Assembly: GCA_051294375.1 (NCBI GenBank)
Contig: CM119265.1
Span: 10,805,042-10,869,041 of the forward strand
DNA length: 64,000 nt
Direction: 5' to 3'
Source: Paraspadella gotoi
Taxonomy: Eukaryota > Animalia > Chaetognatha
Shown one piece after another: positions 880 to 28,975 of this stretch. The first letter of the stretch is position 1. Each line of letters opens with the position of its first letter. The translations under genes were made by a program, and so were the position numbers. The notes under the pieces were generated by a model. The model saw nothing but the letters and a program-made list of their open reading frames with translations. It searched no databases and was not told the DNA's origin.

Positions 880-1550
880 TCATCTAATTAATTAATCAGT
901 CAATCAATCCGACCATCCGTCCCACCTTAACAAAAAGGCCCCAATAACTCGTGATTGGCTGGTTGGATCGGAATGAAACTTTGTGTATGGTAGGAACATG
1001 TGTGATGAAGCTGGATATAAAGTTTCGACGGAATCGTGTGAAGTGGATATGAGTTTAAAATGAAAAAAAACATAAGTCGCATTTGCTAAAATCTTTTTAC
1101 TTATTTTAACCAATAAATACTCTAATTAATCATAATTGGATGGATAGATTGAGTTCAAATTTTGTGTGTGGTAGGAAAATGTGACGAAGCTTGATATAAA
1201 GTTTCGGTATGAGTGGAAAATGAGTTTAAAGGAAAAAAATATGAGTCACATTTACTTGACTCTTTTTACTTATTTTAACCCATAATAGATTGAGATGAAA
1301 TTTTGTGAGCGGGAAGGAAAGTTTGTGAAGAAAGCTAGATATAAAGTTTTGACGGAATTGTGCAAGTGGAAATGAGTTTAAATGAAAAAATATAAGTCAC
1401 GTTTACTTTATTTAAGGACATCGATGATGATAAGCTGTATATAATTTATAATTAATTATTAAATATTAAAATTAATTAATTAATTAATCGATTAATTAAT
1501 TAATTAATTTTCGTAGGCAGATCCGACATTGTTTCCTCAAACTTGTTTCT
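880..1550. mobile_element. Helentron/HINE (DINE-1-like) dispersed repeat; related copies at ~23225-23640, 28185-28710, 29450-29930, 33150-33500, 50785-50895, 51700-52350
   Basis: Recurring blocks 'gtggaaatgagtttaaatggaaaaaa' and 'aaacaagtttgagcaaac..gtcggatctg', plus a GTCC/GTCT microsatellite (29588-29630) of the kind found in DINE-1/HINE elements. The family assignment is inference. Confidence 0.55.
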
Positions 1551-1561
1551 TAACCTCCAGC

Positions 1562-1802
1562 CAGTGGCATGTAAGAGAATTGGCGGGCTACTCCACATTT
1601 TGGTTCGTCCTGAGCCTCCCAGTAAGCTAGGCTCATCCAACCCTCTACAATTAACAATAGAAGTTAAAAAAAAAAAAGGTTTTCATTGATTGGGACTTTT
1701 AAAAATGACATATTACATTTTATATCATTCAAAGACCCCAAGAGCTTTTCCAGGACCCCCCTTTGCTTTGTGGAAGGTTTCTAACCCCTCGATACACCCC
1801 TG
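1562..1802. mobile_element. hAT-like MITE (duplicate copy 8312-8553)
   Basis: Ends CAGTGGCATG.. / ..GATACACCCCTG (CAG..CTG termini). Flanks cctccagc / cccccacc match 6/8, consistent with a decayed 8-bp TSD. Confidence 0.5.
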
Positions 1803-2788
1803 CCCCCACCATTTCCAGAGTGAGTATACTTTTTACAATTATAAACTACAAGCCTGAACCTTCTTATATTTTACCTTATTTCCTGACAGCCTTACAAGAC
1901 TAGTATAAAACAACTTATGCCCCACTAACTTTAATTTATATAAAATCTAGCATTTATATGGTGGCTTTTATCCGAAAAGACTTTTTATTACCTCTAACTA
2001 GCATATACCCCATTAAAAGGTAAACTTTAATTACTGTAGATCCACGTTCTTAAAAGAATCTAAAAATATTTTAGGATTTTTTTATGAGGATAAAGATACG
2101 ATGTGGGCTGAAGGTTATTGTTACTAGAAAGATAATGGTATAGGTAAGGTGGCCATTAAGGAGGGCCAAAATTGATCACTTTTTTATCATTAAGAGTTCT
2201 GTAGTATAAAAATTCCTTTGTCCATCATATACTTAATCAATATTTACAATCACTTTTTTAACTAGTGAAGCACAGTATACACATTGAAGCATTTAAATAT
2301 TTATCAATGCATAGGCAATGAAAAATTAAATTAATATTTTTTTAAAATTAAAATTATATTTTTTAAAAACTGATTCAGATAGCCATAAAAAGTATAATGC
2401 GTTTTTCAATATTTTGATGATAAGTGAGTCAAATAATGGAAAAACTTTATAAAATCATCATCATCATCATCGTACCATAAATTTTTATAGTTTTTTCTGA
2501 TTTTAACCAATAAAACATAAAATTTTGGAAATCTTGTATTAATATTTTTTTATTTATTTTTTAAGCTCTACCCCAATATGTTTTTAAAAATTCTGATTTG
2601 AAAAAAAAGATTTTCATGATTTATAGTAATACGATAAGCTTTAAATGCTTCTATGTTATTAACTATACCATAAAATCTAAAATTTTTTTGTAATTTTGTT
2701 ATCCCACAGGGATGCTATAACGCTATTTAATTACAGAACTCTTAGTTTTTACTTAGTGGCCATATAGAATAGAAACAAAAATAAAGTA

Positions 2789-3488
2789 TGGTAGTCGGGC
2801 ATTGCCTAGGTTCACCCCGCCTAGAATCATGACACTTTCAGTTGTGACCCGGTGGCTCATTGAGTAAAGCCATCAGCTCATGACCACTAGGTACCGGGGT
2901 CAATCCCAACCCGGTACCTACCCTGCGGGAAGCGTGAGGGACGGCCGTAAGCCGCCTTGGGGGCATGGCAACCCTCAAAGCCTGGTTCCAAGCCCAGGGA
3001 CGCCGTTCCATGGCTGCTAGAGGGGGTTATAGAAGTTACGGACAGTCATCTTCAGCCCACGTAGCGCCTTTATCCATACGGTGGAGCCCATCCTGTCGAG
3101 CGTATTCCAACCTTCTGATTCCAGGGCCCTTGTCTAGCTGAAAATTGCTCCCCTCCCTCCACTGAAGCAGTGCAGGGTGGGTTACAATCTGGGGGGCATG
3201 TAGTCGGGCATTGCCTAGGTTCACCCCGCCTATGAGCATGACTCTTTCAAGTTGTGGACCCGGTGGCTCATTGAGTAAAGCCATCAGCTTCATGACCACT
3301 AGGGACCGGTTCAATCCCAAACCCGGTACCTACCCTGTGGAAGCGTGAGGACGACACCGTAAGCCGCCTTGGGGGCATGGCAAACCTGCAAGCCTGGTTC
3401 CAAGCCCAGGGACCCGTTCCATGGCTGCGAGAGGGGTTATAGAAGTTACGAACAGCTCATCTTCAGCCCACGTAGCGCCTTATCCACA
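2789..3488 (+). mobile_element. Family A miniature LTR element (TRIM/retrozyme-like): LTR 2789-3078, internal 3079-3198, LTR 3199-3488; tRNA-like module + twister-like motif in each LTR
   Basis: ~290-bp direct repeats with TG..CA ends, AGTA TSD (2785-2788 / 3489-3492) and GGGGGGCA purine tract before the 3' LTR. No convincing coding capacity. Confidence 0.88.
2925..3006 (+). ncRNA. Putative type-P5 twister ribozyme (family A 5' LTR)
   Basis: GCGGG-AA-GCGT-GA-GGGA-CGGCCG-TAA-GCC-GC-[P3 hairpin]-G-CCTGG-TTCCAAGC-CCAGG. The L4 loop UUCCAAGC resembles the twister UCCCAAGC loop. T1 GGGA/UUCC and T2 GC/GC can pair. Predicted scissile site U2948/A2949. Confidence 0.72.
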
Positions 3489-3779
3489 AGTAAAGTATTT
3501 GTTATAAATAATAAAACGAATTTTTGTTTTATTATTTTTTTTATATTTTTTTTATGTTTTATCTTACTCTTTGATTATTAAATGAATAATATTAAAGCTA
3601 CCTCATTAATCTATTATAAAAATAAACAATATCCTAATATTTGATTTATTATAAAAATATTTTTAAACTTTTTATAAATTATTAAAAAAAATATTATTTT
3701 TCAACTTAATTTTTCAAATTAATATTATTGAAATTTGAAAAAAATTAAAATTTGCCTAGGGAACCCACCATGGTCCCAT

Positions 3780-5750
3780 GTGACTAGTTTCACGAATGGG
3801 TTCTTTCTGTTCCAAAAGTCGACAAAGGGTTACGCCGTGTTTACTCTTTAGAATGTTATTTTTTCACACTATTCTGTATACAAAATTACCTTTTGACTAC
3901 ATTAGCCACGTCAAAAGCATCGTAAGCATCCTCAACTCCGACACTCCGCGATGACAAAGGAGCTTGAAGTGAGACAGCGTTGGCATCTTCTTGAAAACCG
4001 AGCCAGAAGCCGACTGATGCGGGGTTCCACGCCAGAGTGTTTGTAAACGCCCTTTGACTCGATTCCATAGCTCAGAATATTTATCTAAGGCATGTCTCAA
4101 TGAGGACAGGAACGTTTCGCTAATAAATTGGGATGACATTTTGTTGGGTCACTTAAAAGGCATCTTAATCTTACTCAATTGTTCATAATACAACGGTATT
4201 TTTATGTTTAACCATGATGGAAAATATATTTTTTGGTCAATAAATAAGTTTTAATAGTAATAGATGACCTCCTTAAGACTGAATAAAATGATTATTTCTC
4301 AATAGCATAAAATTATTTAAATGCATACAAATTTTCCAAAAAGAGGCTGACTCCAACTGTTTTTTTGATCAAAAGGACTACTTACATTTTGTTAATATTA
4401 TATCTCTGACACAAACTAATGAGCTGAAGAAGGCTTATAACTAAAGCCAAAACATGTATGTTTTCTCTGAAAAATAATGTTGTTGTAAATTAATTCACCT
4501 TTAATTCGCCTTTATCTCTACATTATATTTTTTTATCAAATTTGGACTCATTTCATACTTGGTTCTATAATACATTCAGAGGTAAATAAAAATGATAACT
4601 TTGCTCACAGAAAAGGTACCCAGAGCCTTAAAACTTTTATTGATACTTTACAATATAAAAATAATACCTGGAGCATCTACAGCATTAATGTATTTATAAT
4701 ACCGCTCTTTTTTGACATATGTATTAAGATTCATCCCTGAATCTATCTTAATAAAGATGATACAATACCATTTGACATGAGACTGAGAAAAGGCAGGGAT
4801 TTTTAATATAGTAAGTAATAAAAAAACCGGAAAAAAGTATAAATGAAAAGTGTAGATATGAAAAAGTTAAAAAAAGAAGGAAGCATTTTTTTGGACAAGA
4901 AATTTTCTTTTGCATGGAACTCTTGTATTTTTGTTGTATATAAATGAGACACTGCTCATATGAATCATAAGAAGCCAAAGTATCTTGATATCTAAATTTT
5001 ATTTTTCGATTCTTACATTAAAATGCCGAAAAATAGCTGGAAAGTAGCCGCGACAATTTTTTTTTTCATCATGGTACACAATTTAAGAAATAATAAAAAT
5101 GCAATGTTTCTAAAATGCCTCGACTCAGCTTTACCGTTCACCTGGCTGAGCATTGCCTCCCGATTCTGTCTCCGCTTTTCCTGGACCCAATGATAAAGAA
5201 GCAACCACTCTTCCGTTCTTTGCTTATCTTCCGCTTGCAGCAGATGGAACCCGTCGGGTAGTTGAAAAAGTATTTGAAATCCGTCAAATAGACTCCTGAT
5301 GAGAAAAGAGTTTTGTATTAAAACGGACAATGACTCTACTCACCAGAAGACAGAGGTAAAGCTTTTTGTAACTGTAGACCTATGATTACTAGTGGCGTCG
5401 GGATGAAAGGCTCGGCACGCCTTGATGTCTTTCCTCAGTTCGATTTGGAAAGCAGACTCTGTTTCTTTCACAAAAACCCAGAGGATTGTGTCCTTAATAA
5501 ATAAAAACTAGTTAATAAAGAAGATTTGAGGTTTTTTTAAATTTTTTAAAATCAATAATTAGGCTACTTAAAAAAGAGGTTTGCCGTTTGGCTTAAAGTT
5601 AAATTGTACCTTGAGGACACCCAAGCCGGTTTTTGCGCATCATTAATTTTAAACGTTAGTTTTCCGAATCTTTGAAATCTTTCTTCAAGAAACGGCTGCA
5701 TGGTAGAGGGGAGGTGATAGTTCGAAACGAAGAGACCGCATCCATTTTAT
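3780..5750 (-). pseudogene. Decayed hAT-like (ZBED-type) transposase fragments (duplicate ~10530-12520)
   Basis: Minus-strand peptide '..TLCRLLEQKEPIRE' (~3790-3830) resembles the hAT 'ML.RLLEQK.AI' segment. Other GC-richer coding-like patches lie at 3890-4140, 5120-5480 and 5580-5750, with many stops and frameshifts. Confidence 0.4.
4420..4462 (+). ncRNA. Degenerate minimal hammerhead ribozyme remnant of Penelope type (duplicate ~11170-11210)
   Basis: CTGAAGA-aggctt..aagcc-AAAAC-ATGTA. The GAAA core is mutated to AAAA, so it is probably inactive. Confidence 0.55.
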
Positions 5751-5937
5751 CTGATAATTTGAATAACTAATTATTTCCCGAAATAAAATTTTTGCATTGC
5801 AAGTAATACCTTTTTTTCATAGGTCTCTGTTGCATAATTATGTACTTTTCCCGGGGTACTTATAAAAATCCGTGCAAATCATCCCTTGTTTATGAAAAAA
5901 AGTTTCACGAAGAAATTTCAAAATGTTTTATAAAACT

Positions 5938-6450
5938 ATACACGGTTCCTTTTTACATCGATTTTAATCGGCATGGAGTGCACAAGAATGAGATGTCCGG
6001 GATACGTTTCGGACCTTTGGCTACACAAAAAAAGGGTAATCAAATTTTTTCCTATGACAGTTTTTTTATAAATTAATATTAAATTAGCTATATAAAACAA
6101 TAAAGTAGAAGAAAAAAAAAAATTAAAAATGGCTTTAAATTTTTTTAAAATGAAAATATCATGCATCATCCATAATCTATGAACAATTTTCTCTTTCGTT
6201 TGAGTCCATAACCATTATTCTATCTTTTAATAGTTTAATTTGTAATTAATTTTTTCTTTATTAAAATATAATTTTATTTTTTTTCAGATAATTAAATTAA
6301 AAAAATTATAAGTATGCCAAATGATTGAAGAAAAATTTTATATTATAGAGGGACTTACCTACCTAATATAGGCTTTCAAATACATATATAGTAAGTTTAT
6401 TATGATGATGTTTTGACATAGAAAAAAATAATTATAAAATTAAATATATG
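5938..6450 (+). repeat. Dispersed repeat/DNA-transposon end fragment; inverted copy at ~16240-16750
   Basis: About 500 bp matching 16240-16750 in reverse. Both copies begin TA|CACGGTTCC, like a TA-target transposon terminus. Confidence 0.65.
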
Positions 6451-6503
6451 AAAAAATTTATAACTTTGAATTTTTTTTTAGCATAATAAAATAGCATATT
6501 AAA

Positions 6504-8090
6504 AAATTATGTATGAAACAGACGAAAACTTTTTTTTAAAATCACATGCTATTTAATTGCTTGAACTGATATAATATTATCCTTGGACAAAATTTAAAAA
6601 CTTTTAAACAATCCCAACTAGACATTTTTAAGGATTGTCAAATGTATAAATATTTGATATTCGGACTGCTTTGTAGGTTTTAACTTAATTCAGTAGCCCT
6701 TTTAATATGACAGAAAAGCATATATTTAACAGTTTTTTTATTTGGAGTGGGCATCAAAGTTCTAATACATATTAACATCAGTATATTTTTGTTAAGTATA
6801 GGTAGATTCCTCTATAGATTTTTCAATTTTTGAAAACATTTACTCTTTTTTTTCTATAATTTTTTGAACACGCAAAACGTTTTCTTTGATTACGACAAAG
6901 AGAATGTAAAAAATTAAAAATAAATAGTACAAATAGTTAGAGTTATGTCTAGAATAGATGAAAAAAAAAACCTTGTTTAAAATTTTGATTCGGGAAGTGG
7001 GGTAACTAAGGCTTACCAACGGTATCCTCCATGCTGATGTTCTCTCAATTAATTTTTTTAATTTAATACATTGTAAAAGGGAAAAAAGAAATTCAAATGC
7101 AGGTGGCATAAAGGGTAAGAAAAATCTGTACATAGTGCATGATAATAATGACCTTTTATGTCCTTGCGTAAGGGGGGCAGTAAAAAAGAAACCTTAAAAA
7201 TGCAATCATTAAGTCAGTCAAAGAACCCTTTTCGCGATTTTTTTTTCTTAATTAAAAATGGATGATAATAATAGAATTAAATTCCCTTTATAAGGTTGTT
7301 ATATTTAAAAGAAAATTAGCAATACAATTCAACACAATGATGTCTTGCTTTGTAAATATGTCAGCAGTTAAGTAATTTTTTTAAATTTTAATTACGATAA
7401 ACAAAAGCATGTATATCAAGCTTTTTCTTTGCAGTTGAAGATATTGAAAAATGATTATTTTTTTTCACAGACAAAAAGGTAGACGTCCAGACTGTTTATA
7501 TCAAGCTGAAAACATTTTATTATTTATCATTTTTTCATATTTCAAAAACATTTCTATCAAGCTACTACAAATTTTTTGCTTGTTTTTTACTTTAAACTAA
7601 AATACAAGCAAATTTATAAAGTAGCAAAAAATTTAATGATAATTAAAATGTAATTCGACTTTCCTCTTCAATTTACAAAAGAAAAACAAAAAAAATTTCA
7701 TATGCCTTCATTGAAATTTGTAATGCAAAAAACTGTTATAACTTTTAACTCGTATTTAAATAAAAGAACTGTGTAAAGATTTATGGATAAACATTAACAA
7801 AACTGTTCTAGAAATGCTGTCCCACGATTAGGGCCTTTAAAATTTGATAGCCACACCCACGCTTGCTCCTCTTTTTCTTTCAAAGATAATTCAAAGAAAT
7901 AACTTTTTTTATTACTTTTTTTGCATCTTGCAGTTTTTTTTTAAACACCTAACTTATGGCCTTATAAAATGTCTAGTTGGGATTGTTTAAAACTTTTTAA
8001 ATTTTGTCCAAAGGATAAATAATAATCACTCCACAAAATCAAATAGCCATCTGATTTAAAAAAAAGTTTTCGTCTGTTCATACATAATTT
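6504..8090. mobile_element. ~1.6-kb non-autonomous DNA element with ~130-bp terminal inverted repeats (duplicate ~13280-14910)
   Basis: 6504-6633 is the imperfect reverse complement of 7960-8090. AT-rich non-coding interior. Confidence 0.7.
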
Positions 8091-9590
8091 AATATCGTAA
8101 TGTTTTGTGCAAGTGGAAATGAGTTTAAATGGAAAAAATATAAGTCACGTTTACTTTATTTTAAGGACATCGATGATGATAAGCTGTATATAAATTTATA
8201 ATTAATTATTAAATATTAAAATTAATTAATTAATTAATCGATTAATTAATTAATTAATTTTCGTAGGCAGATCCGACATTGTTTGCTCAAACTTGTTTCT
8301 TAACCTCCAGCCAGTGGCATGTAGAGAATTGGCGGGCTACTCCACATTTTGGTTCGTCCTGAGCCCTCCAGTAAGCTAGGCTCATCCAACCCTCTACAAT
8401 TAACAATAGAAGTTAGAAAAAAAAAAGGTTTTCAATTGATTGGGAACTTTTAAAAATGACATATTACATTTTATATCATTTCAAAGACCCCAAGAGCTTT
8501 TCCAGGACCCCCCTTTGCTTTGTGGAAGGTTTCTAACCCTCGATACACCCCTGCCCCCACCATTTCCAGAGTGAGTATACCTTTTTAACAATTATAACTA
8601 CAAGCCTGAACCTTCTTATATTTTACCTTATTTCCTGACAGCCTTACAAGACTAGTATAACAACTTATGCCCCAACTAACTTTAATTTATATAAAATCTA
8701 GCATTTATATGGTGGCTTTTATCCGAAAAGACTTTTTATTACCTCTAACTAGCATATACCCATTAAAAGGTAAAACTTTATTACTGTAGATCCACGTTCT
8801 TAAAAGAATCTAAAAATATTTTAGGATTTTTTATGAGGATAAAGATACGATGTGGGCTGAAGGTTATTGTTACTAGAAAGATAATGGTATAGGTAAGGTG
8901 GCCATTAAGGAGGGCCAAAATTGATCACTTTTTATCATTAAGAGTTCTGTAGTATAAAATTCCTTTGTCCATCATATACTTAATCAATATTTACAATCAC
9001 TTTTTTAACTAGTGAAGCACAGTATAACATTGAAGCATTTAAATATTTATCAATGCATAGGCAATGAAAAATTAAAATTATATTTTTTAAATTAAAATTA
9101 TATTTTTTAAAAACTGATTCAGATAGCCCATAAAAAGTATAATGCGTTTTTCAATATTTTGATGATAAGTGAGTCAAATAATGGAAAAACTTTATAAAAT
9201 CATCATCATCATCATCGTACCATAATTTTTATAGTTTTTTCTGATTTTAACCAATAAAACATAAAAATTTGGAAATCTTGTATTAATATTTTTTATTTAT
9301 TTTTTTAAGCTCTACCCCAATATGTTTTTAAAAATTCTGATTTTGAAAAAAAGATTTTTCATGATTTATAGTAATACGATAAGCTTTAAATGCTTCTATG
9401 TTATTAACTATACATAAAATCTAAAATTTTTTTGTAATTTTGTTATCCCACAGGGATGCTATAACGCTATTTATATTACAGAACTCTTAGTTTTTACTTA
9501 GTGGCCATATAGAATAGAACAAAAATAAAGTATGTAGTCGGGCATTGCCTAGGTTCACCCCGCCTAGAATCATTGACACTTTCAGTTGTT

Positions 9591-9664
9591 GACCCGGTGG
9601 CTCATTGAGTAAAGCCAATCAGCTCATGACCACTAGGTACCGGGGTTCAATCCCAACCCGGTAC
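9591..9664 (+). promoter_or_regulatory. tRNA(Met)-like Pol III internal promoter inside family A LTR
   Basis: A-box-like TGGCTCATTGA (9598-9608) and B-box GGTTCAATCC (9644-9653) at tRNA spacing, with a CTCATGA anticodon-loop-like segment (CAT). Confidence 0.7.
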
Positions 9665-9671
9665 CTACCCT

Positions 9672-9751
9672 GCGGGAAGCGTGAGGACGGCCGTAAGCCG
9701 CCTTGGGCGCATGGCAAACCTCAAAGCCTGGTTCCAAGCCCAGGGACCCGT
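9672..9751 (+). ncRNA. Putative type-P5 twister ribozyme (second, more diverged copy ~10082-10162)
   Basis: P5 GCGGG/CCCGT; P2 GCC/G(C)GT; GA-GGA T1 with UCC of L4; UAA at 9694-9696; P4 CCTGG/CCAGG closing UUCCAAGC. Confidence 0.72.
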
Positions 9752-12700
9752 TCCATGGCTGCTAGAGGGGGTTATAGAAGTTACGGACAGTCATCTTCAG
9801 CCCACGTAGCGCCTTATCCATACTGGTGAGCCCATCCTGTCGAGCGTATTCCAACCTTCTGATTCCAGGGCCCTTGGTCTAGCTGAAAATTGCTCCCCTC
9901 CCTCCACACTGGAAGCAGTGCAGGGTGGGTTACAATCTGGGGGGCATGTAGTCGGGCATTGCCTAGGTTCACCCCGCCTATGAGGCATGACCTTTCAGTT
10001 GTGACCCCGGTGGTCATTGAGTAAAGCCATCAGCTCATGACCACTAGGGACCGGGTTCAATCCCAACCCGGTACCTACCCTGTGAGAAGCGTGAGGACGA
10101 ACCGTAAGCCGCCTTGGGGGGCATGGCAAACCCTCAAGCCTGGTTCCAAGCCCAGGACCCGTTCCAATGGCTGCGAGAGGGGGTTATAGAAAGTTACGGA
10201 ATCAAGTCATCTTCAGCCCACGTAGCGCCTTATCCACAAGTAAAGTATTTGTTATAATAATAAAACGAATTTTTGTTTTATATATTTTTTATATTTTTTT
10301 ATGTTTTATTCTTACTCTTTGATTATTAAATGAATAATATTTAAGCTACTCATTAATCTTATTATAAAAATAAACAATATCCCTAATATTTTGATTTATT
10401 ATAAAAATATTTTTAAACTTTTTATAAATTATTAAAAAAAATATTATTTTTCAACTTAATTTTTCAAATTAATATTATTAAATTTGAAAAAAAATTAAAA
10501 TTTGCCTAGGGAACCCACCATGGTCCCATGTGACTAGTTTCACGAATGGGTTCTTTCTGTTCCAAAAGTCGACAAAGGGTTACGCCGTGTTTACTCTTTA
10601 GAATGTTATTTTTTCACACTATTCTGTATACAAAATTACCTTTTGACTACATTAGCCACGTCAAAAGCATCGTAAGCATCCTCAACTCCGACACTCGCGG
10701 ATGACAAAGGAGCTTGAAGTGAGACAGCGTTGGCATCTTCTTGAAACCGAGCCAGAAGCCGACTGATGCGGGGTTCCACGCCAGAGTGTTTGTAAACGCC
10801 CTTTGACTCGATTCCATAGCTCAGAATATTATCTAGGCATGTCTCAATGAGGACAGGAACGTTTCGCTAATAAATTGGGATGACATTTTTTGGGTCACTT
10901 AAAAGGCATCTTAAATCTTACTCAATTGTTCATAATACAACGGTATTTTTTATGTTTACCATGATGGAAAATATATTTTTTGGTCAATAAATAAGTTTTA
11001 ATAAGTAATATGACCTCCTTAAGACTGAATAAAATGATTATTTCTCAATAGCATAAAATTATTTAATGCATACAAATATTTCCAAAAAGAGGCTGACTCC
11101 AACTGTTTTTTTGATCAAAAGGACTACTTACATTATTGTTAATATTATATCTCTGACACAAACTAATTGACGCTGAAGAAGGCTTATAACTAAAGCCAAA
11201 ACATGTATGTTTTCTCTGAAAATAAATCGTTGTTGTAAATTAATTCACCTTTAATTCGCCTTTATCTCTGACATTATATTTTTTATCAAATTTGGACTCA
11301 TTTCATACTTGGTTCTAATAATACATTCAGAGGTAAATAAAAATGATAACTTTGCTCACAGAAAGGTTACCCAGAGCCTTAAAACTTTTATTGATACTTT
11401 ACAATATAAAAATAATACCCTGGAGCATCTACAGCATTAATGTATTTATAATACCGCTCTTTTTTGACATATGTATTAAGATTCATCCCTGAATCTATCT
11501 TAATAAAGATGATACAATAACCATTTGACATGAGACTGAGAAAAGGCAGGGATTTTTAATATATAGTAAAGTAATAAAAAAAACCGGAAAAAAGTATAAA
11601 TGAAAAGTGTAGATATGAAAAAGTTAAAAAAGAAGGAAGCATTTTTTTGGACAAGAAATTTTCTTTTGCATGGAACTCTTGTATTTTTTGTTGTATATAA
11701 ATGAGACACTGCTCATATGAATCATAAGAAGCCAAAGTATCTTGATATCTAAATTTTATTTTTCGATTCTTACATTAAAATGCCGAAAAATAGCTGGAAA
11801 GTAGCCGCGACAATTTTTTTTTCATCATGGTACTACAATTTTAAGAAATAATAAAAAATGCAATGTTTCTAAAATGCCTCGACTCAGCTTTACGCTTTCA
11901 CCTGGCTGAGCAATTGCTCCTCGATTCTGTCTCCCGCTTTTCTGGACCCAATGATAAGAAGCAACCACTCTTCCGTTCTTTGCTTATCTTCCGCTTGCAG
12001 GCAGATGGAACCCCCGTCGGGTAGTTGAAAAAGTATTTGAAATCCCGTCAAATAGACTCCTGATGAGAAAAGATTTTTGTATTAAAACGGACAATGACTC
12101 TACTCACCAGAGACAGAGGTAAAGCTTTTTGTTAACTGTAGACCTAGATTACTAGTGGCGTCGGGATGAAAGGCTCGGCACGCCTTGATGTCTTTCCTCA
12201 GTTCGATTTGGAAAGCAGACTCTGTTTCTTTCACAAAAACCCAGAGGATTGTGTCCTTAATAAATAAAAACTAAGTTAATAAAGAAGAATTTGAGGTTTT
12301 TTAAATTTTTTTAAAATCATTAATTAGGCTACTTAAAAAAGAGGTTTGCCGTTTGGCTTAAAGTTAAATTGTACCTTGAGGACAACCCAAGCCGGTTTTT
12401 GCGCATCATTCATTTTAAACGTTAGTTTTCCGAATCTTTGAAATCTTTCTTCAAGAAACGGCTGCATGGTAGAGGGGAGGGTATTGAAAGCGAGAGACCG
12501 CATCCATTTTATCTGATAATTTGAATAACTAATTTATTCCCGAATAAAATTTTGCATTGCAAGTAAACTACCTTTTTTTCATAGGTCTCTGTTGCATAAT
12601 TATGTACTTTTCCCGGGGTACTTATAAAAAATCCGTGCAAATCATCCCTTGTTTATGAAAAAAAGTTTCACGAAGAAATTTCAAAATGTTTTATAAAACT

Positions 12701-15700
12701 ATACACGGTTCCTTTTTACATCGATTTAATCGGCATGGAAGTGCAACAACAAGAAAATGAGATGTCCGGGATACGTTTCTCGGACCTTTGGCTACACAAA
12801 AAAAGGGTAATCAAATTTTTTCCTATGACAGTTTTTTTATAAATTAATATTAAAATTAGCTATATAAAACAATAAAGTAGAAGAAAAAAAAATTAAAAAT
12901 GGCTTTAAATTTTTTTAAAATGAAATATCATGCATCATCCATAATCTATGAACAATTTTCTCTTTCGTTTGAGTCCATGAACCATTATTCTATCTTTAAT
13001 AGTTTAATTTGTATTAATTTTTTCTTTATTAAAACTTATAATTTTAATTTTTTTCAGATAAATTCTAAATTAAAAGAAATTATAAGTATGCAAATGATTG
13101 AAGAAAAATTTTATATTATAAGGGGACTTACCACCTAATATACGGCTTTCAAATACATATTATAGTAAGTTTATTATGATGATGTTGTTGACATAGAAAA
13201 TAAATCAATTATAAAATAAATATTGAAAAAATTTATAACTTTCGAATTTTTTTTTAGCAATAATAAAATAGCAATATTAAAAAATTATGTAATGAAACAG
13301 ACGAAAAACTTTTTTTTAAAATCACATGCTTTTAATTGCTTGAAACTGATATAATATTATCCTTGGAACAAAATTTAAAACTTGTTAAAACAATCCCAAA
13401 CTAGACATTTTTAAGGTTGTCAAATGTAATAAATATTGAATATTCGGACTGCTTTGTAGGTTTTAACTTAATTCAGTAGCCATCTTTTAATATGACAGAA
13501 AAGCATAATATTTAACAGTTTTTTTATTTGGAGTGGGCATACAAAGTTCTAAATACATATTAAACATCAGTGAATATTTGTGTTAAGCTATAGTAGATCT
13601 CCTCTATAGACTTTTTCAATTTTGAAAACATTTAACTTTTTTTTTTCTATAATTTTTTTGAACACGCAAACGTTTTCTTTGTTACGCAAAAGAGGAATGT
13701 AAAAAATTAAAAATAAATACGTACAAATAGTTAGACGTTATGTCTAGAATAGAATGAAAAAAAAAAACCTTGTTTAAACATTTTGATTCGGGAAGTGGGG
13801 GTAACTAAGGCTTACCACGGTATCCTCCATGCTGATGTTCTCTCAAATTCAATTTTTTTAATTTAACTACATTTAAAGGGAAAAAAAGAAATTCAGAATG
13901 CAGGTGGCATGAAAGGGTAAGAAAAATCTGTACATAGTGCATGTAATAATGAACCCCTTTTTTTTTATGTCCTTTTGCGGGTAATAAGGGGGGCAGTAAA
14001 AAAGAAACCTTAAAAATGCAATCATTAAGTCAGTCAAAGAACCTTTTCGCGATTTTTTGTTTCTTAATTAAAATGGATGATAATAATAGAATTAAATTTC
14101 CTTATAAGGTTGTTAACTATTTAAAAGAAAATTAGCATTAACAATTAACACAAGATGTCTTGCTTTGTAAATATGTAGCAGTTAAGTAATTTTTTTTAAA
14201 TTTTAATAGATAAACAAAAGCATGTATATCAAGCTTTTTCTTTGCAGTTGAAGATAATGAAAAATGATTATTTTTTTTCACAGACAAAAGGTAGACGCTC
14301 CAGCACTGTTTATATCAAGCTTGAAAACATTTTATTATTTATCATTTTTTCATTTTTAAAACATTTCTATCAAGCTACTACAATTTTTTTGCTTGTTTTT
14401 TACTTTAAACGTAAAAATACAAGCAAATTTATAAAGTAGCAAAAATCTTAATGATAATTAAAAATGTAATTCAGACTTTCCTCGTTTCAATTACAAAAGA
14501 AAAACAAAAAAAATTTCATATGCCTTCATTGAATTTAGTAATGCAAAAAACTGTTATAACTTTTAACTCGTATTTAAATAAAAGACTGTGTAAAGATTTA
14601 TGGATAAAATTTAACAAAACTGTTCTAGAAATGTGTCCCACGATTAGGGCCTTTAAAATGTTGATAGCCACACCCACGCTTGCTCCTCTTTTTCTTTTCA
14701 AAGATAATTCAAAGGAAAATAACTTTTTTTATTACTTTTTTTGCATCTTGCAGTTTTTTTTAAAACCAACCTAACTTTGGCCTTAAAAATGTCTAGTTTG
14801 GGATTGTTTAAAACTTTTTAAATTTTGTCCAAGGATAATATAAAATCACTCCACAAAATAATAGCCATCTGATTTAAAAAAAAGTTTTTCGTCCTGTTTC
14901 ATACATAATTTAATATCGTAATGTTTNNNNNNNNNNNNNNNNNNNNNNNNNNNNNNNNNNNNNNNNNNNNNNNNNNNNNNNNNNNNNNNNNNNNNNNNNN
15001 NNNNNNNNNNNNNNNNNNNNNNNNNNGATCCGATTCCTCCTCCTCCTCCTCCCTCCTTCCCCTCCTCCTCTCCCTCCTCCTCGTCTACAGCGTCGCCAAG
15101 AAGGCCGTCGACCCGGCCTCAGATCGAGAACCCCGGCGCCATCGACGCGAGTCACTCGTTCAATGGCTCAGCGCGCCGTTACATCAGACCCGGTACCCCT
15201 TCCTCCTCCTCCTCCTCCTCCTCTCCCTTGTCCCTCCCCAGCTGCCCCACCTTCCCCCAACCCATCCTCACCCTCACTGTCTTTTTTGTCCCCAGCTTCC
15301 CCTTCCTTTCAGTCTCCACGTACGACAGGTCCGCTGCGCGAAAGCGAGAAGGAAAACAACAACAACAAGAAAGAAAATGGGAGAAATGAGCCAACGATCG
15401 AACGACTGTCAAATCCCACAACCAGCGACTTTTCTAAACAATTCCCGAGCAATAACCGCCCGGCATATGCCGTTGTATAAAAGAAATGCTACATGCGACA
15501 AAAATACAAAACAACAACAACAACAAAAGCAGTTGAAACTTTTTCGCCCTTTGATATTGGCAATTTTGGATTTTATGTTACTGAATTCTAGTAATTTGTT
15601 AAATTTTATATGTTATCGAATGGAAATATTTTTTTTTACACGTCTAAACTGGTCATTTAGACCATTGTGTGTATATACTCGTATATATTGATTTAAATTT

Positions 15701-15806
15701 TTTTTTTTTTTTTTGTTTTTGTTCAACATACTTAACAATCAACTCAGAAAGACGAAACTAAATTTGTAGTAATACATAGTTACCTTATTATTACGACAGG
15801 GGGGCA

Positions 15807-16238
15807 TGCGGCCATCTGAGTTAAATATCAGATATGGAAACCTTTTGTTTCATATTAAATCAGTCAGCAGTCACCAGATGGTTTCCCGCTTTTTAAAAAC
15901 CTATTGTTTGATTGTTTCTTTAACTGATTGATTCAAACTGATTTTCACTCTTGTTTTTACTCTCAATAATAAATGTTCTCATCAAATCATTTATACTTGT
16001 TTTTATTCTCTCTCCAATGTAACTAACTACATTAAAGAATGAGACAGAAATATTCATCAACTAAGATACACAATTGTGAACAAACAAGTAAACAATTATT
16101 CCTAATGTGATGCGATTCACCTTCCCGCGATACGCTGACTCATTGGACTGAAGTCATTCGCTGCGCTACCTTAGGACTGCATCGCACGGTCGCCTAGACA
16201 CTTTGCGGCGCTCTGGCACCGCCCCGGGTCTAGCCACA
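15807..16238 (+). mobile_element. Candidate LTR of a further family
   Basis: Preceded by AGGGGGGCA (same PPT style as family A). Starts TGCGGC and ends GCCACA (imperfect TIR, TG..CA). AATAAA near 15968; GC-rich structured 3' part. No second copy or TSD is visible. Confidence 0.45.
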
Positions 16239-16799
16239 TATATTTAATTATTTAAAATATTTATTTTCTATATCAAAACATAATCATAATAAACTTACTA
16301 TATATGTATTTGAAAGCCTATATTAGGTAGGTAAGTCCCTTATAATATAAATTTTTTCTTCAATCATTTGGCATACTTATAATTTTTTTTAATTTAAATT
16401 ATCTGAAAAAAAATTAAAATTATATTTTAATAAAGAAAAATTAATTACAAATAAACTATTAAAGATAGAATAATGGTTATGGACTCAAACGAAAAAAAAT
16501 TGTTCATAGATTATGGATGATGCATAATATTTTCATTTTTAAAAAAAATTTAACCATTTTTAAATTTTTTTTCTTCTACTTTATTGTTTTTATATAGCTA
16601 ATTTTAATATTAATTTATAAAAAACTGTCATTAGGAAAAATTTGATTACCCTTTTTTTGTGTAGCCCAAAGGTCCGGAAACGTATCCCGGGATATCTCAT
16701 TCTTGTGCACTCCATGCCGATTAAATCGATGTAAAAAGGAACCGTGTATATATATGTACATGCAAATATTTTGACCCATATCCTTTTCTGAAATACTCA

Positions 16800-19700
16800 C
16801 CGATCCCCGAAGACATCATTGTTTTTTATTTCTGAAATAAGAGTAACATCCCTCAACGATACCAAATCCAACGCGTCCAAAGAATCTGGTCCTTCAAAAC
16901 ACTTCAAAAAACCATCGTTGGAAACACAAAATTGTTTTTTGTTTACTTTCATTTTTTGCTTGCTTTTTTTAAGCACTGATGATTTACGTTTCGTTGATAA
17001 GACCGTCAAAAAGTCTTTCATTGGTTGTTCTGTTAGATAAGAGTAAGATGTGACATGTGTCAAGATTGAATATTCAATCAATGTTAAATTCTTATTACCA
17101 GTACTATAAGAATTGATTTCACCACATTTAGATGGGTTGCTGTGGAGTTCAATTAAAGCTGCTTGGGAGTTTTGGCCAAAACTGATTTAAAATATTTTAA
17201 AAATCGCAAACAAAAATGCCATATTTTTGAAAACAAGTAATAACCTATTATAAATTACCTTAAAGCGAAATGATACAAAGATTTGTGGCCACTCAGGTAG
17301 CGGTTTTCTTCTGTTATGTTCGCCCCAAACACAATTAACTGCAACGTCTTCTTCAGATTATTTGTCTAAAAAAATTTAAATTCATTTTTTAATGCATACC
17401 TGGAAGATACTACAATTTTCATTTTAAACCTTCAAATTAGTAGTAAGAGCGCTATCCAGGTCGCCTTGATTTCGTCTTCGATCGCAAAACGATTTTAGTT
17501 TGTATTTTGCGATGACGAAGTTTTTCCTCTCAAATTGAGAAGAGCTTCGCCGAAGGACGTTTCCTCCCAATATATCCAACGCTCTGTCGTTACCTAAACG
17601 CGTTTTCAAATCAAGACTTACATTACTCGTTTAATTTCTTCGTCATTTCTGTAAGTCTGCAAGAAAATTATCACCGATGGAGGAGATGATTTCAAGCTCT
17701 TCAGCTCGCCAATCTTCATCATCCGTCTTGAGCGACATGATTCTCAAATTTAGGACGCCCACTTCCCGATGAGCGACGCAACAATTCTTGCAGACCACGA
17801 TTCCCCAGTTGACGACGGCCCAGTCAGGATCGGGATTACCGCAGTCTGCGCACGCTCGGTTGGAGGCATTGTTTCGCACTCTAAACCAAACGCTAAAAAT
17901 TCCGACGAGATAAGAAATATTTTTTAACTATTTTATAAAAACTTAAGTTTTAACACTTAAAAGTTAATACATAAATATAAACAGACTGCCAGATTTTTAA
18001 TGCAATAATAGTCAGTAACCTTCACCTTCTGGGTTGCAACCGTCTTCCCTCGGCGATGGCCTCCTCCATCGTACTTTGCCACTTGGCCAAGCTGGCAACA
18101 GAATCAAAGGCGAAGCCCAATTCTATCGATGACCCCAAATGCAGAACGAGTTCGTGATCGACGTCAAAAATCCCGGTTGCCTGCGACCAATGCAAGATTG
18201 TGAATGAAATTGTATTACTTTTCGAGTATTAATATGATTTTCACATTATAGGAATATCTAGAAATTCAAAAGATGGAATCGAATGGAATCGCATGGAACC
18301 ACTTGGAACCGGATCAAAGACTCAGGAAGAAATAACCGAAATGGTATCAAGCATTCTGTTAATGTTAATAATAATAATAATATTCTATTTTCTATTTCTT
18401 ATTCAATAAGCAATACTCACTTCAATTTCGGCTTGTCCCATCTGAACAACCATCATCGGGACATCGTCATTAAAATCTCTCTCATCTTTGTAAATGCAAA
18501 ACCAGGGGCCTTTGATGGCGACGAATTTGGAGCCCAGAATCTTGCATTCTTTTTCCAAAGGTTGCATTGACTTCACTTCGATGAAACCTGGAAACAAAAG
18601 TCAAAACTCTCAAGCATACAGAAAAGCCTCAGAAAAAAAGACAAATTTGACTAAAACATATACATAAATATTTATTATATCGCCTACAAGTACGACAGTT
18701 TTACGAAACTCATAAAGTAATCTATGAGTCATTGTATGACTTAAGTCAATTTTTATTAAAATATTACCTTTTTGGTTTGGGTCGTATAGTAGTTCACCGC
18801 CGTCTTTTTCCCAGTCTTCAAGACAGCCCTCCACTTGCATTATCTGCGAACCAGGTATTTTAATATTTAAAGGAAAATTATTGAGGCGACATTAATACAT
18901 TAATACGTATTATTTCTAAATCAAAAAATCAAATGAAAAAAAGAAAATATAGTATAAAGCTTAATATAGAGAAAAATATACTTGACCTGATTAAGGCGTT
19001 CAATCCATTGCCTCATCTCATCGTGATTTGCGGCGGTGAAGATGTATTTTCTTTTCCTGGTTTTCAATTCGAAACTGTTCTGTGAATTGGTCCTTCCGGA
19101 TGACGTCTCGACGGGTGACACTGAATTTATGCCACGGATGACCAGTCTGAAATTAGCCAAAGACTAAAAGTTTTAAATTTTGCGTTGTATGAAATAAGAT
19201 TTAAACTTAACTCGCCTGGAAAATAAACTTTCTTTGTCAAAGTAGCTCGTTAATTCTCCAATGAAGCCTTCCCCCGTTATTCGTTTTGTCAAACGATACC
19301 ATCGCTTAACATGTGATTTGGCACCTGGAAACAAAGTTTTAATTAAAATTTACTTATTAAATACGAAACATAATTCGAATCAATGAAGAATGTTAAAAAA
19401 CCCTTAGTAATTCCCACTCACCATGTTGAGTTAAAACCTGCCGACTCAAGCGGCCTTCGTGCAGCAGCATCGGGCTTGGTTCAGTAGACCCAATCTCAGA
19501 ATATACTTCCGATTGGGTCCTTTGGCTTTAGAATTGAGATCAGAAGTCATTATTTTCTATTTATAGTTTTTCAAATATTAGGTGTTATGGTGGACTAAAA
19601 TCGACCAACCGTTCATCAGCGGCCATTGGTGCCGGAGGCAAGTCATTCGCCTCCCAACCCAAAGGTCCGGGGTTCGAGCCCGGTAGTCGCCTAGCAGTTA

Positions 19701-20350
19701 AGGGGGACGGGGCGCTTAACCCGCCTGTAACATGGTGTTACAGCCTGGTCCGAAGCTCAGGGACTGCTTATATTGAACGGTTCTGTCATTAACACATATC
19801 AATAATTACTGTCTCTTCAGTGTGTATATATGTATATAAATTAGTTTATTGTTTTTTAGCTGTTCAAAACCCTTATAAATTTATAAATGGTAGGTTACTT
19901 GTAATGAAATACCTTGGAGACATACTTCCATTGCCAGAATCCGAAGAGACCAGACCTAAGTAAAACAAAGATTCAATGCATTGCAACATGCGTTTTAACT
20001 ATTTGTATAAGATTTTGACATAAAAAAAAACCGATTTCATAAAGGATAAAATGATCACGTATACATTTTTATTTCGTTCCACGGACCACGGTACTTACTT
20101 TGCCTTTCTCCAGTCATTTGATAAGCTTTATCAATAGAATTTCTATTTTCCAGATGTTGAGGCGATGACAACGGTGTCGGCTCGGACGACTGCGCAGATT
20201 CTGAGCCCACTTCAGTCGCAACGCAGCTTTTTGGAACGTCGTAATCGCCAGTCGTCGGCGCTGACACCGGCGTCGTTTTTTCTGAGATTGAATCCAAGGG
20301 TCGGTTGTTGATCGGCATTTGATAGTGGGATTCGAGGAAGGAGACAGCTG
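16800..20350 (-). CDS. Multi-exon Arf-GAP with PH domains (ARAP/centaurin-like; PH-PH-ArfGAP-PH); 5' and 3' ends uncertain (possible further exons ~20900, ~21900, ~24040 and 15030-15490)
   Basis: ArfGAP finger CADC-x16-CKNC-x4-R (NRACADCGNPDPDWAVVNWGIVVCKNCCVAHR, ~17770-17865). PH motifs 'NSFELKTRKRKYIFTAANHDEMRQWIERL', 'GFIEVK..FVAIKGPWFCIYKDERDF' and 'KQFCVSNDGFLKCFE'. Short GT-AG introns. Confidence 0.85.
19619..19691 (+). promoter_or_regulatory. tRNA(Gly)-derived Pol III promoter module in family B LTR
   Basis: Acceptor-like GCGGCCA/TAGTCGC, 'TTCGCCTCCCAA' as in tRNA-Gly(CCC), and B-box GGTTCGAGCC in a CCGGG/CCCGG stem. The anticodon stem is degenerate. Confidence 0.7.
19693..19768 (+). 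ncRNA. Putative type-P5 twister ribozyme (family B)
   Basis: P5 AGCAGTT/GACTGCT; P2 CCC/GGG; GA; T1 CGGG/UCCG; P1 loop GCGC; UAA (19717-19719); GC/GC T2; P3 CTGTAACA/TGTTACAG; P4 CCTGG/TCAGG closing UCCGAAGC. Confidence 0.82.
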
Positions 20351-23300
20351 GGAAAGAGAGTAGGAGATTGTTAAGGAAGATAGTATGGTGGACTAAAATC
20401 CACCAACCGTTCATGAGCGGTAGCGCGGAGCATAAATACAAGATATGATATATGACCTCTTGTGCCCCCTTAATTTTTTGTATTTGATATAATACTATCC
20501 CCCAATATTAAAAAAAATGAAAATTCGCTTGCTCAATTTTCCCGTTCTATCGATTTAATAAAGCAATTTGATGCAAAAAAATTGTAAAAAAATTACAAAA
20601 TTTGATATCAAAGAAAGCTGATTAAGTTCACTTTTTGAAGTGAAATATAGCTAAAACAAACAATTTAAACCAGTTTTCATCCATAAAAATAAAAAAAATC
20701 AGTTTATATAAATATTGAGTGATTCTAAAAAAATAGATATTCTTATAACAAAATTGTTAAAAATTAAGCAAAATGGAAAATAAGTTCCAAGCCATATAAC
20801 GCACACAATATCCTGTTTAAAGCTTATAAAAGCTTTTAGTAGCTACATTAAACTTTATACAGCTTATTATAAGCTTCACCAAAAAAATATTAATTGACTT
20901 ACCATAGCATAGGCCTTACCCATTACCACTCTCCTCCCTTCCGTAGATCGCTCTGGCCGATCTGTCTTCTTTTTTTTTTAAATGAAAAAATTCTCATGAA
21001 AGACTGGTAAAATCGTTTAAATAATACTCTGTTAAATATTAGTACAATTAATAATAGAATAATAATAATAATAATTGAAAGTCTTTTTTTTTTTTTTTTT
21101 TTGCGCTCGCGGAAAGATAAGGAAAAAAATATAGAAAAGATTAGGAAAGATGGAAGAAAAAAAATTATGGTGGGTTGGGAGGATTTGTCGGTTAGCCAGT
21201 GAGTCGGTAGAGCAGGGAAACTTAATCCTGGGGTAGGTTAAACTAGGGGAAAGGCCTGATTGGGCGCCACTCAGAAGGTATGCACCTATCTAGGGATATG
21301 GGCTGACTGTTATCATGAAGGGAGAAGAAGTGAGAAGGGTGAGATATATGAAATTGGTACAACCAATTAAAATTATCCATTCATTTATAAATAAGCTATC
21401 TTGCCCTGACTTGGACAGGCTTTATATTAGTAATAGGAAAACAGGTACAACAAAGGGGAATAAGGGTACATAAAAGGGGAGAGGGAAGTAGGAAGGCTTG
21501 AGGAATGAGGACCCCGAGATCGTGAGGAGAGTGTCTGAGGCCGATCTCCAAGACTGTATCCGTGACTCCGGGATGAAGAGGAGGGGACGATGAGGGGAGG
21601 ATGAGGAGGCTTGAGAGGGGGAAGAGAAGACCCGGGAGAGAGAAAGGTTCTGGCGGTAAGGGGGGGGTCTATCCTGATAATTTGTTCAGCCATATTAATT
21701 TTAGATCAAAAAATGTTTTATCACTATTTTTATAAACCTCTATCAATTTTGTTTAACATTTTGTTGGCTCATTTTAGTCTGTATAACCAGGATTTTAATT
21801 TCTTACAATAAATAAATATAATCCTAAATTGTATTGACGCTCGTGGCGGTGTGTGGGCATGGCCATAGGGAGAAAAGGGGCTCGATGTCAGACGGCCGTG
21901 GATTCGATATCGGCTTCTGACTTAGACTTTTTCGAGAGAAAGAACGCGACTACGACAACGCTTTGTTGGAAGCTTTATCTCTCTCTCTCTCTCTCACTCA
22001 CTCTCTGTCTCTCTCACTTTCTGAGAACTTCTGTCTCGATGCTTACGGTCCAGTCGTTTGCAGTCGCTCGTCCAAAAAAAATGGTTTTGACAAGAGTCTC
22101 GATGACTTTATCTCCGTTGAGTGTAAAACGAGAGTTTATTCTCGGTGACAGACGAGGCAAATATGTGACAATAACGTGACAAAATAAGTCGCGAAAACCC
22201 TCTAAAACGACTGAAAAGCTGGTCATAAAAATTATGAAAGTAAACATTTAAAAATGATCAACGTTATAAACAGGCCGAGATTAAGCCAAACAACTCTGAT
22301 CTTGAATAACCATTTTCATTTATTTAATTTTATTGTTAATATCAGTTTTAGTTTTTGTCACTGTCGCTTTAAAAGTGTTTTGTTTCATGCTTTTGTTTTT
22401 TATTCATTGTTTAAATTTTTAAAATAATAAGAGAGAGTTTTTAACATTTACAAACAATAAATTTAGTAAATATTAAAAATAATCTTCTCTGACTCTGTTC
22501 TTATCTCAAACTGGAAAAATGGCAGAAAAAAAGAATATCAGACTTGACTTAGAGGCAACAATAGAGTAAGGTAACCACCGAGGGTGAAATGCCTGATGCC
22601 TTTTATATAATAAACAAAACCTCTCCTGCTTTGGAGGATTTTTTTAATAATTTATTTTTCTTTTTGTTTATATTATGAAAGTTTTAAACACCATTTGAAT
22701 AAATACACAGATCCATAAATTTATTAGTTTCCTAATCGCCTTAGTTTATTATTTCGCTTTACTTTTTGTAGTTCAAAAAAACGAAAAACTAAACTATTAA
22801 TAGATAAAGTAACTTTTTACAAATGAAAACAATATATATCTCCTTATTTCATATATATTTGATTAAAACATTCTGATTAACTATCTTTCCTATTATTTTG
22901 AAATTCTTTATTGGTATTATTTCCGACAATGAAAAAATGCAATTTTTTAATAATATTAAACATTATTTAATACAAGTTTTTTATATTTATATATGTTGAA
23001 AAGTTTTAAATGCTATATATTATAAAAATTAATAATACTAACCACTTTATTTTATTTAAATTTATTTTTTTTCCGATTTTTTTGCATCTTATCGCATTAT
23101 AAAATCGATAGAACGGAAAAATGGCCAAGCGAATTTTTTTTGTTTTTTTTTTTGTTAGAAATAGTTTTACATGTGTTTCAAAAATTAGGAGGGCACAAGA
23201 CGTCCTTTATTATTTCTTGTATTTATTAATCACACACTTTTCTACCCAAATACAAAATTTAAAGTCAATCGCCCCATCCACTTATGAGTAATTGGTATTC

Positions 23301-24044
23301 AAATAGTGAAATTTATTTTTTTATTTTTTCCATTTAAACTCATTTCCATTCGGACGATTCCATCAAATATATAGCTCAATACACACACTTCCCTACCCAC
23401 ACACAAAATTTCATTCCAATCCATCCATCCAATCACGAGTAATTAGTGTTTTTTGCTAAGGTGGGACGGATGGACGGACATCGTTTTTTTTTTGCATAAT
23501 TTATCATAATTCGATGTTCGGACATGATATAAGTGAGTGCCCGACAATATTGAGGGGGCGGACCGACGGACCGACAAAGTGAATTATAGAGTCGGGATCT
23601 GCTGAAAGCAGTTCCGACTAAAAAAAGAGTAAAACGTTCTGACAAAATAAAAAAATTATAGAGGAATCTACTTTATTATAATTTTTTCTTTGATGAATTC
23701 CTTTTTAATGAACATTCGAGTAAAGTATTGAAAAGAAAATTTTTTTTATACTTATGAAATTGGTACAACCAATATAAAAATTATCCATCCATTTAATAAA
23801 TAAGCTATCTTGTCCCTGACTTTCGACAGGCTTTGGTGGTTTAAGGCCTCCATCACACTTGCAAGATAATAACATTTTAGAGTTGACAAATTAACCGATT
23901 TTAACGGTTAATCAGTTAAATTTTGACATTTTAACCGATAATTAAAATTTTTTAAATTAACCATTTTTTCACGCCTAATGATAAGTGTTGGAATTGGGTT
24001 AAAAATAGCAAGGTCATCGCAAATTATCTCCCTTACCTGATTCG

Positions 24045-28760: not shown

Positions 28761-28975
28761 ATGAAATTGAAACATTCGTTGATAGGGAAGCCAGGTACTC
28801 TGGGAGTGAATAAACTCGACTGAGAAAGAATCTTGATTGAAAGCTTGCAGGGACCTGCTATGTCATTATCTTGTAAGAGTGATGGAGGCCTTAAACCACC
28901 AAAGCCTGTCCAAAGTCAAGGGGAAGATAGCTTATTTATTAAATGAATTTATATATTGGTTGTACCATTTTCATA
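28761..28975 (+). repeat. Unclassified ~200-bp dispersed repeat (copies 40494-40677 +, 40768-41000 +, 23754-23875 -, 21348-21424 -)
   Basis: Shared core 'gcagggacctgctatgtcattatcttgtaagagtgatggaggccttaaaccaccaaagcctgtc'. Common 3' end 'gtacca(a)tttcat' with variable 5' truncation. Confidence 0.8.

Follow-up and report, generated by a model that had tools for sequence, protein, structure and literature searches.

Long terminal repeat (LTR) retrozymes have so far been described from plants and with hammerhead ribozymes only. The plant elements carry a self-cleaving type III hammerhead in each LTR, a primer-binding site (PBS), a polypurine tract (PPT), 4-bp target site duplications (TSDs) and a non-coding interior, with no internal promoter recognised; their RNAs of 600–1000 nt have been proven experimentally to be circular, the monomer has no terminal repeat, and multimeric copies occur (PMC4918200, PMC7761336). 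Animal retrozymes, still regarded as non-LTR elements in a 2024 review (PMC11722881), are tandem repeats that contain hammerheads and lack LTRs, a PBS and a PPT; they produce RNAs of 170–400 nt in which the weak helix of minimal hammerheads is rescued by dimers, and one schistosome repeat of the retrozyme type contains a tRNA (PMC7229834, PMC7761336). The Helenus/TRIMp3 elements (Kojima 2024), non-coding TRIMs (terminal-repeat retrotransposons in miniature) of <1.3 kb, combine a tRNA promoter in the LTR (A and B boxes in both LTRs) with a PBS, a PPT and, in animals, a 4-bp TSD; they presumably depend on a Gypsy helper, form tandem arrays in one family, and are reported without a ribozyme in the portions of the source covered here (PMC10886601). 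For animal twister ribozymes one role has been described: in Perere-3/RTE non-LTR elements, T-variant twisters occupy the 5' end and set the RNA end, as a single type-P1 twister of an autonomous long interspersed nuclear element with no LTR or tRNA head (PMC8501958). Here we analyse a 64,000-nt stretch of the chaetognath Paraspadella gotoi (contig CM119265.1, positions 10,805,042 to 10,869,041 of the forward strand; hereafter "the window"), which harbours a miniature LTR element at 9533–10238 in which each LTR has a promoter motif of the tRNA type and, after it, a predicted twister.

This element joins the Helenus TRIMs and the plant LTR retrozymes, and it most likely works as an LTR retrozyme. 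Our reading, to which we assign a probability of about 0.55, is that it represents a high-copy, non-coding, Helenus-type miniature LTR retroelement, and that its likely mode of spread is that of a retrozyme, by way of a self-cut, probably circular RNA of ~400 nt that a Gypsy-type helper copies. Its parts are as follows.

9529–9532, + strand: left TSD, AGTA, read from the sequence
9533–9822, + strand: 5' LTR, 290 bp
9823–9946, + strand: interior, 124 bp, opening with C-TGGTGAGCCCATCC and closing with G6-CA
9824–9841, + strand: PBS-like motif TGGTGAGCCCATCC, 1 base past the 5' LTR
9939–9946, + strand: polypurine tract, G6 (9939–9944) then CA
9947–10238, + strand: 3' LTR, 292 bp
10239–10242, + strand: right TSD, AGTA
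25426–26736, − strand: independent insertion, a tandem array of 4 LTR pieces and 2 interiors around an N gap (26071–26095)
2790–3488, + strand: second copy of the first insertion, within a ~6.75-kb tandem duplication

An earlier note on this DNA had proposed a non-coding element of ~700 bp with TG..CA LTRs of ~290 bp, an interior of ~120 bp with PBS-like and PPT motifs, and the TSD AGTA, and all of this was confirmed in the sequence: the 706-bp element begins with TG at 9533, ends with CA at 10238 and contains no open reading frame of 120 aa. The PBS-like motif has three matches in the window, all within the LTR family, where 0.14 would be expected; its TGG starts one base beyond the LTR, and it is a candidate PBS. 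Aligned to each other, the two LTRs disagree at 9 of 282 bases, not counting 18 gap columns, and the 5' LTR ends with CCATA in the 9533–9822 copy and with CCACA in the remaining copies, single-copy details that are noisy because the assembly is indel-rich. The insertion at 25426–26736, for which the same note had claimed independence and the same termini, indeed has termini identical to those of the 9533–10238 element and its own 4-bp TSD (TTTT on the + strand), so that 4-bp TSDs flank 2 of 2 independent insertions. The copy at 2790–3488 is the same insertion and not an independent one, because it has identical flanks and lies inside the duplication (1358–8105 vs 8105–14926, 95% identical), which holds both copies. 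Duplicated junction fragments of the tandem-array insertion are found at 24724–24757 and 26989–27023, with identical flanks, and the left flank of the first element (9333–9517) is a deep repeat too, as judged by contig depth.

The repeats might alternatively be pseudo-LTRs of a Penelope-dependent non-LTR retrozyme, as the window contains Penelope-like elements and a tandem array. We consider this very improbable, given the fixed TG/CA ends, the PBS-like and PPT motifs and the 4-bp TSDs at both independent insertions, features that are absent from the published animal non-LTR retrozymes, which have longer TSDs (PMC7229834). An origin of the element from the Penelope-like elements of the window was rejected, since these bear hammerhead cores and not twisters.

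The LTR family is likely present in high copy. In run X1, 4521 contigs map on the stretch, with depth sums (which are not a copy number) of about 18,000–407,000 across the element vs 50–117 across its right flank. In run X9, 14 contigs diverge from the stretch where the LTR ends in CA and continue into dissimilar flanks, and four among the pieces listed end at 9533, which fits common termini at further loci. Pieces of the stretch also occur in run X10 (13 contigs) and run X11 (2 contigs, with a different organism label).

The element is of the Helenus type, because tRNA-type boxes in the LTRs together with 4-bp TSDs define that group. Its tRNA-like head occupies the 5' half of the LTR and no T4 run follows, whereas in most of the Helenus LTRs inspected the end comes shortly behind the B box and frequently bears a T run (by eye, uncounted), although the fish families lack such a run as well (PMC10886601). 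In contrast to the plant retrozymes, it contains no hammerhead core but a predicted twister, its predicted RNA is ~400 nt long, its LTRs have tRNA-type boxes, its host is an animal, and its circle is a predicted one.

The twister fold of the LTRs was delineated as follows.

9672–9751, + strand: type-P5 twister variant predicted in the 5' LTR
9672–76/9747–51, 9679–82/9697–99, 9702–26 and 9727–44: its helices P5, P2, P3 and P4-L4-P4, respectively
9683–87, 9688–93, 9694–96 and 9700–01: its GAGGA strand, self-complementary hexamer, UAA and T2, respectively
9694/9695: its predicted cut site (U9694/A9695)
10082–10164, + strand: twister of the 3' LTR, predicted cut at 10105/10106, with a 7-nt non-palindromic P1 linker
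9695–10105, + strand: predicted 411-nt monomer between both cut sites

The similarity to type-P5 twisters (RF02684) comprises the UAA cut loop, the GANGR strand, the L4 loop, the T1 and T2 pseudoknots, P4, an A-rich linker preceding P2 and the P5 permutation (PMC5408937, PMC11662667). Reading of the sequence bore out the statements of the earlier note on the UAA and L4, on the two pseudoknots, on the position of the predicted cut (U9694/A9695) and on the monomer length (411 nt, ~410 claimed); in the array at 25426–26736 the predicted cut sites are 395 and 396 nt apart. The Rfam Twister-P5 model, also named in that note, does match both LTRs, but with only 17.4 and 15.8 bits (E-values 0.49 and 1.3) vs the gathering threshold of 37.6. 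Besides this sub-gathering score, the LTR twister differs from RF02684 in the simultaneous presence of P3 and P5, in the P2 5' strand of 3 nt and not 4, with P2 comprising 3 bp with a bulge and not 4 bp, and in P1, which is a loop-less, self-complementary stretch of 6 nt and not a hairpin. Flaws of P1 and P2 are tolerated in assayed natural twisters (PMC11662667, PMC5408937). The conserved core bases and both pseudoknots are present, including all four residues at which the rice twister accepts no single change, G13, G30, A46 and G48 (PMC5113685), which correspond to 9700, 9738, 9684 and 9686. The twister fold is well supported despite the sub-threshold Rfam score, and the U/A step is its predicted cleavage site.

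The descriptor scan of the window identified the same variant in two further repeat families, unrelated to the LTR family and denoted here B and C.

19580–19821, + strand: family C, a ~245-bp tRNA-headed repeat resembling short interspersed nuclear elements (SINEs), with a B box (19671) followed by the twister variant
46015–46261 (+), 38434–38680 (−) and 20377–20420 (fragment): further copies of family C
40494–40677, + strand: family B, a repeat of ~190–210 bp that has the twister variant and variable 5' ends but lacks a B box
40796–41001 (+), 28775–28976 (+), 23752–23875 (−) and 21347–21423 (−, truncated): further copies of family B

Of all window sequences, those of family B score highest with Rfam Twister-P5 (25.8 and 24.4 bits), and no LTR pair was seen in the window copies of family C. 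Common to the three families are the P5 permutation, the AAG linker, the 3-nt P2 5' strand and the six bases from GANGR to UAA. Compensatory changes between families affect the first pair of T1 (G-C, U-A or C-G), its third pair (A-U or G-C), the first pair of T2 (G-C or A-U) and the P2 pair adjoining the cut (U-G, U-A or G-C), and both sides have changed at two pairs of T1, one of T2, one of P2 and two of the hexamer. Among 10 natural copies 95% of 160 cells are paired, as compared to 16–52% with slid partners.

It could be argued that the twister likeness arose by chance in a GC-rich repeat: the Rfam E-values are high, the loose descriptor, which gave 9 hits in the window, gave 11 in 30 shuffled windows, and both the loose and the strict descriptor were written after the motif had been seen. 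We find this hardly probable, as the compensatory changes extend across three unrelated families, the loose descriptor gave 0 hits in 3000 LTR shuffles, the strict one 6 hits in the window vs 0 in 200 block-shuffled windows, and the short-P2 form recurs in an unrelated AT-rich metagenome contig (L126:758–834, with two palindromes in its 22-nt P1 region and no Rfam match at E 0.1).

Outside the window, a pattern scan of 120 viral loci gave a single match to the loose descriptor, and stricter patterns gave none in viral and prokaryote collections. None of 43 metagenome loci belongs to the LTR family or passes the descriptor at the matched site, and Rfam found ordinary twisters in 4 of the 7 metagenome loci scanned; the E-values of model R1 on these loci are inflated, as the loci had been chosen by motif. 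The metagenome twister matches are L147:909–957, L162:368–442 and 1477–1547 (with a shortened P2), L129:1059–1143 and L123:89–145, while L064:290–348, from a viral contig, passes the loose descriptor without an Rfam match.

Variation within the LTR family was assessed by placing contigs on the array LTR, where the variant rows cover 25531–25587 only; for run X1 this amounts to 1654 contigs, depth-weighted. Both of the frequent variants, at 40% and 68% of depth, fall in the 9-nt P3 loop, and the bulged base of P2 varies in 11%. Variants at paired positions of P2, P1 and P5 (4.6%, 2.4% and 13%) keep the pairing in all three cases, two of them being CpG transitions, whereas the listed core positions vary in less than 1%, and the palindromic hexamer (as at 9688–9693) is present in 99% of depth.

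The head of the LTR was analysed in the same manner.

9598–9654, + strand: predicted tRNA-type internal promoter motifs, with the A box from 9598 and the B box at 9644–9654

TRGCY and GGTTC at the spacing of a tRNA occur together in 1 of 20,000 LTR shuffles, although box A lacks its YGG, and Rfam reports no tRNA match anywhere in the element. The head is therefore tRNA-like at the motif level only and its isotype is not nameable, owing to the missing Rfam match; of the tRNA(Met)-like promoter suggested previously, the A and B boxes with tRNA spacing stand and the tRNA(Met) identity is unsupported. Two other candidates were rejected: a tRNA-Tyr predicted by ARAGORN at 2912–3006 is spurious, as it overlies the twister region, and self-priming by the LTR head is not indicated, as by eye its 3' end is not complementary to the PBS. 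Runs of T act as terminators for RNA polymerase III (Pol III), and the + strand of the element has no run of four T; such a run appears first at 10270, in the flank.

The following cycle would account for these features. Pol III would start near 9591, in the head of the 5' LTR, and read through both LTRs, because the element has no terminator. The twisters would cut at U9694/A9695 and U10105/A10106 and release a 411-nt product (395–396 nt in the array) without a terminal repeat, which would therefore have to be circularised before reverse transcription from the PBS. Circularisation would be effected by a tRNA-ligase-type activity, plausibly RtcB, which circularises animal retrozymes in vitro (PMC7229834); a Gypsy-type enzyme would then prime on the circle at the PBS, and more than one round of the circle would generate tandem arrays. 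Through the loop-less, self-complementary P1, the twisters of both LTRs in a transcript would be able to base-pair with each other and cleave as a dimer. The plant LTR retrozymes provide the precedent for such a cut-and-circularise cycle, with the same argument from the missing terminal repeat (PMC4918200), and Pol III transcription is unvalidated for the published Helenus elements too (PMC10886601).

The dimer idea derives from the six-base P1 linkers of the three families, CGGCCG, AGGCCU and GGCGCU, all of them self-complementary. None of them forms a hairpin alone, since the central pair is impossible within one strand, and two copies of each are computed to anneal over 6 bp (−10.7, −9.1 and −8.3 kcal/mol). 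A self-complementary central dinucleotide in all three families has a chance of ~1 in 60 if the families are independent, a condition that may not hold. By likeness to the dimeric minimal hammerheads, a domain-swapped twister dimer may be envisaged. P1 of twisters is dispensable (PMC5408937, PMC11662667), so that a monomeric form with a short loop might also cleave.

A number of observations weigh against the retrozyme reading, in addition to the Rfam scores. According to one review, the active site might be perturbed if P2 had a different number of pairs (PMC5408937). The minimum-energy fold of the LTR core (−31.7 kcal/mol) is more stable than the twister secondary structure calculated without pseudoknots, P1 and P2 (−24.4 kcal/mol); this competing fold retains P4 and P5, while GAGG and the cut site pair with the P3 sequence. 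Two-copy co-folding, in a model that does not cover pseudoknots, gave no dimer twister for the LTR family, and the hexamer is broken in the 3' LTR of the 9533–10238 copy, likewise in its duplicate. The predicted 411-nt circle is 62% paired and not unusually stable (z −0.72 vs shuffles); published retrozymes are >70% paired (PMC4918200). Run X9 shows 2–4% variation at several positions that are core or paired. A Helenus family for which no ribozyme is reported forms tandem arrays as well (PMC10886601). The covariation that the earlier note had asked for in P2, P4, T1 and T2 across copies was found in T1, T2 and P2 between families; it rests on three families only, and no double change was found within the LTR family among the contigs placed. 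In the 10 copies 9 of 16 pairs change on both sides, a value reached by 34 of 500 shuffles, and three of the nine, in P4, are an offset artefact of the family B stem (4 vs 5 bp); nor does the count of pair types beat the shuffles (391 of 500).

Several of these observations would also be accommodated if the twister were an inert passenger. In such a scenario the LTR would have arisen from a captured SINE with tRNA head and twister, similar to family C, the promoter would be used, the ribozyme would be masked, and the element would replicate as an ordinary Helenus TRIM from uncut RNA. Family C is a possible source of the LTR module, having the same order and a similar distance from the B box to G45 (39 nt vs 35 nt; twister numbering of PMC5113685), and SINE capture is the proposed origin of Helenus (PMC10886601); the more stable competing fold and the broken hexamer fit an idle ribozyme, and a young family may seem conserved regardless. 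Against it stand the common variants, which spare the core and preserve the pairs, the divergence of the P3 and pseudoknot sequences from family C with the fold kept, and the absence of a T4 terminator, and we regard it as rather unlikely.

Or perhaps the twister is active and only forms the RNA 3' end instead of a Pol III terminator? The 3' LTR would then cut while the 5' LTR would mostly stay uncut, and normal strand transfer, without any circle, would copy a linear RNA whose terminal repeat is ~100 nt long. This would agree with the missing T4 run and with the unremarkable structure of the predicted circle, and the competing fold could gate cleavage. Yet the same module is present in both LTRs, so that one-sided cutting needs an additional rule, dimer pairing would couple both cuts, and the plant LTR retrozymes cut in both LTRs (PMC4918200). 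We judge this variant quite unlikely, and the retrozyme reading with cuts in both LTRs is retained.

As regards novelty, the earlier note knew of no element that combines a tRNA promoter, a twister and LTRs. A twister in such an LTR was not found in the literature searched, but the tRNA promoter in an LTR with 4-bp TSDs was already known as Helenus (PMC10886601); what is new is the ribozyme in a tRNA-promoter LTR and the loop-less palindromic P1. In the full-text literature, a scope that leaves out most subscription papers, Repbase and Dfam, the searches returned no twister in an LTR or TRIM, no Helenus ribozyme, no animal LTR retrozyme and no natural dimeric twister. The ~2,600 tested twisters in the supplement of PMC11662667, outside this scope, may include the LTR variant.

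The Helenus consensus sequences themselves suggest a second case. By eye, the LTR consensus sequences of Helenus-2_SyJa and Helenus-2_SyUm from Synergus wasps (PMC10886601 DataS1) contain an unannotated complete type III hammerhead ~35 nt past the B box, with the GUC site, a 7-bp stem I, CUGAUGA, a 4-bp stem II, GAAA, a 6-bp stem III and complementary loops, and no T4 run after the head. The words "ribozyme" and "hammerhead" do not occur in the supplement, and the main text, in the portion covered, names ribozymes in a reference title only. No twister was seen by eye in the animal consensus sequences of supplement parts 5–9; a search of the same source with the L4 motif, in which line breaks can conceal motifs, gave one unrelated match and was the only coverage of the fungal parts 2–4. 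If the wasp hammerhead is read correctly, the combination of tRNA head, ribozyme and LTR arose with two different ribozymes, and animal LTR retrozymes of the Pol III type may form a wider, unrecognised class.

A bolder proposal, possible but distinctly tentative, is that animals hold such Pol III-driven LTR retrozymes of more than one origin (twister here, hammerhead in the wasp Helenus-2), and that the twister form works only as a dimer: through its palindromic P1 both LTR ribozymes of one transcript would pair, cutting would occur only once both LTRs are made, and the exact monomer would be freed for circularisation. If true, the retrozyme reading would extend circle-based LTR retrotransposition to animals, provide a new biological job for twisters and explain how the RNA ends are defined in a Pol III TRIM without a terminator, and a natural dimeric twister would parallel the dimeric hammerheads.

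Concerning the genomic surroundings, an ARAP-like gene with ArfGAP, PH and RhoGAP exons (best solved match ARAP3) is located at 10636–20507 on the − strand of the window, in line with an animal host, and the LTR element is antisense to it and probably within an intron. One family C copy is antisense to the same gene, an arrangement expected under selection against self-cleavers on the sense strand, albeit seen in two cases only. A homology search with an acyltransferase-like exon gave no match. The Penelope-like elements, which are broken and have inverted ends, are found at 31044–32516 (+) and 36890–37800 (−), and their hammerhead cores, of the minimal type, at 32948, 28055, 4424 and 11173 (+) and at 36490, 25189, 24483 and 50995 (−). 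Near-identical tandem duplications of ~6.75 kb (1358–14926) and ~5.39 kb (about 53400–64000) are either real or an assembly artefact. The window also includes a tRNA-His-like gene or pseudogene at 38982–39053 (Rfam, 35.5 bits) and an 18-bp minisatellite at 30029–30442.

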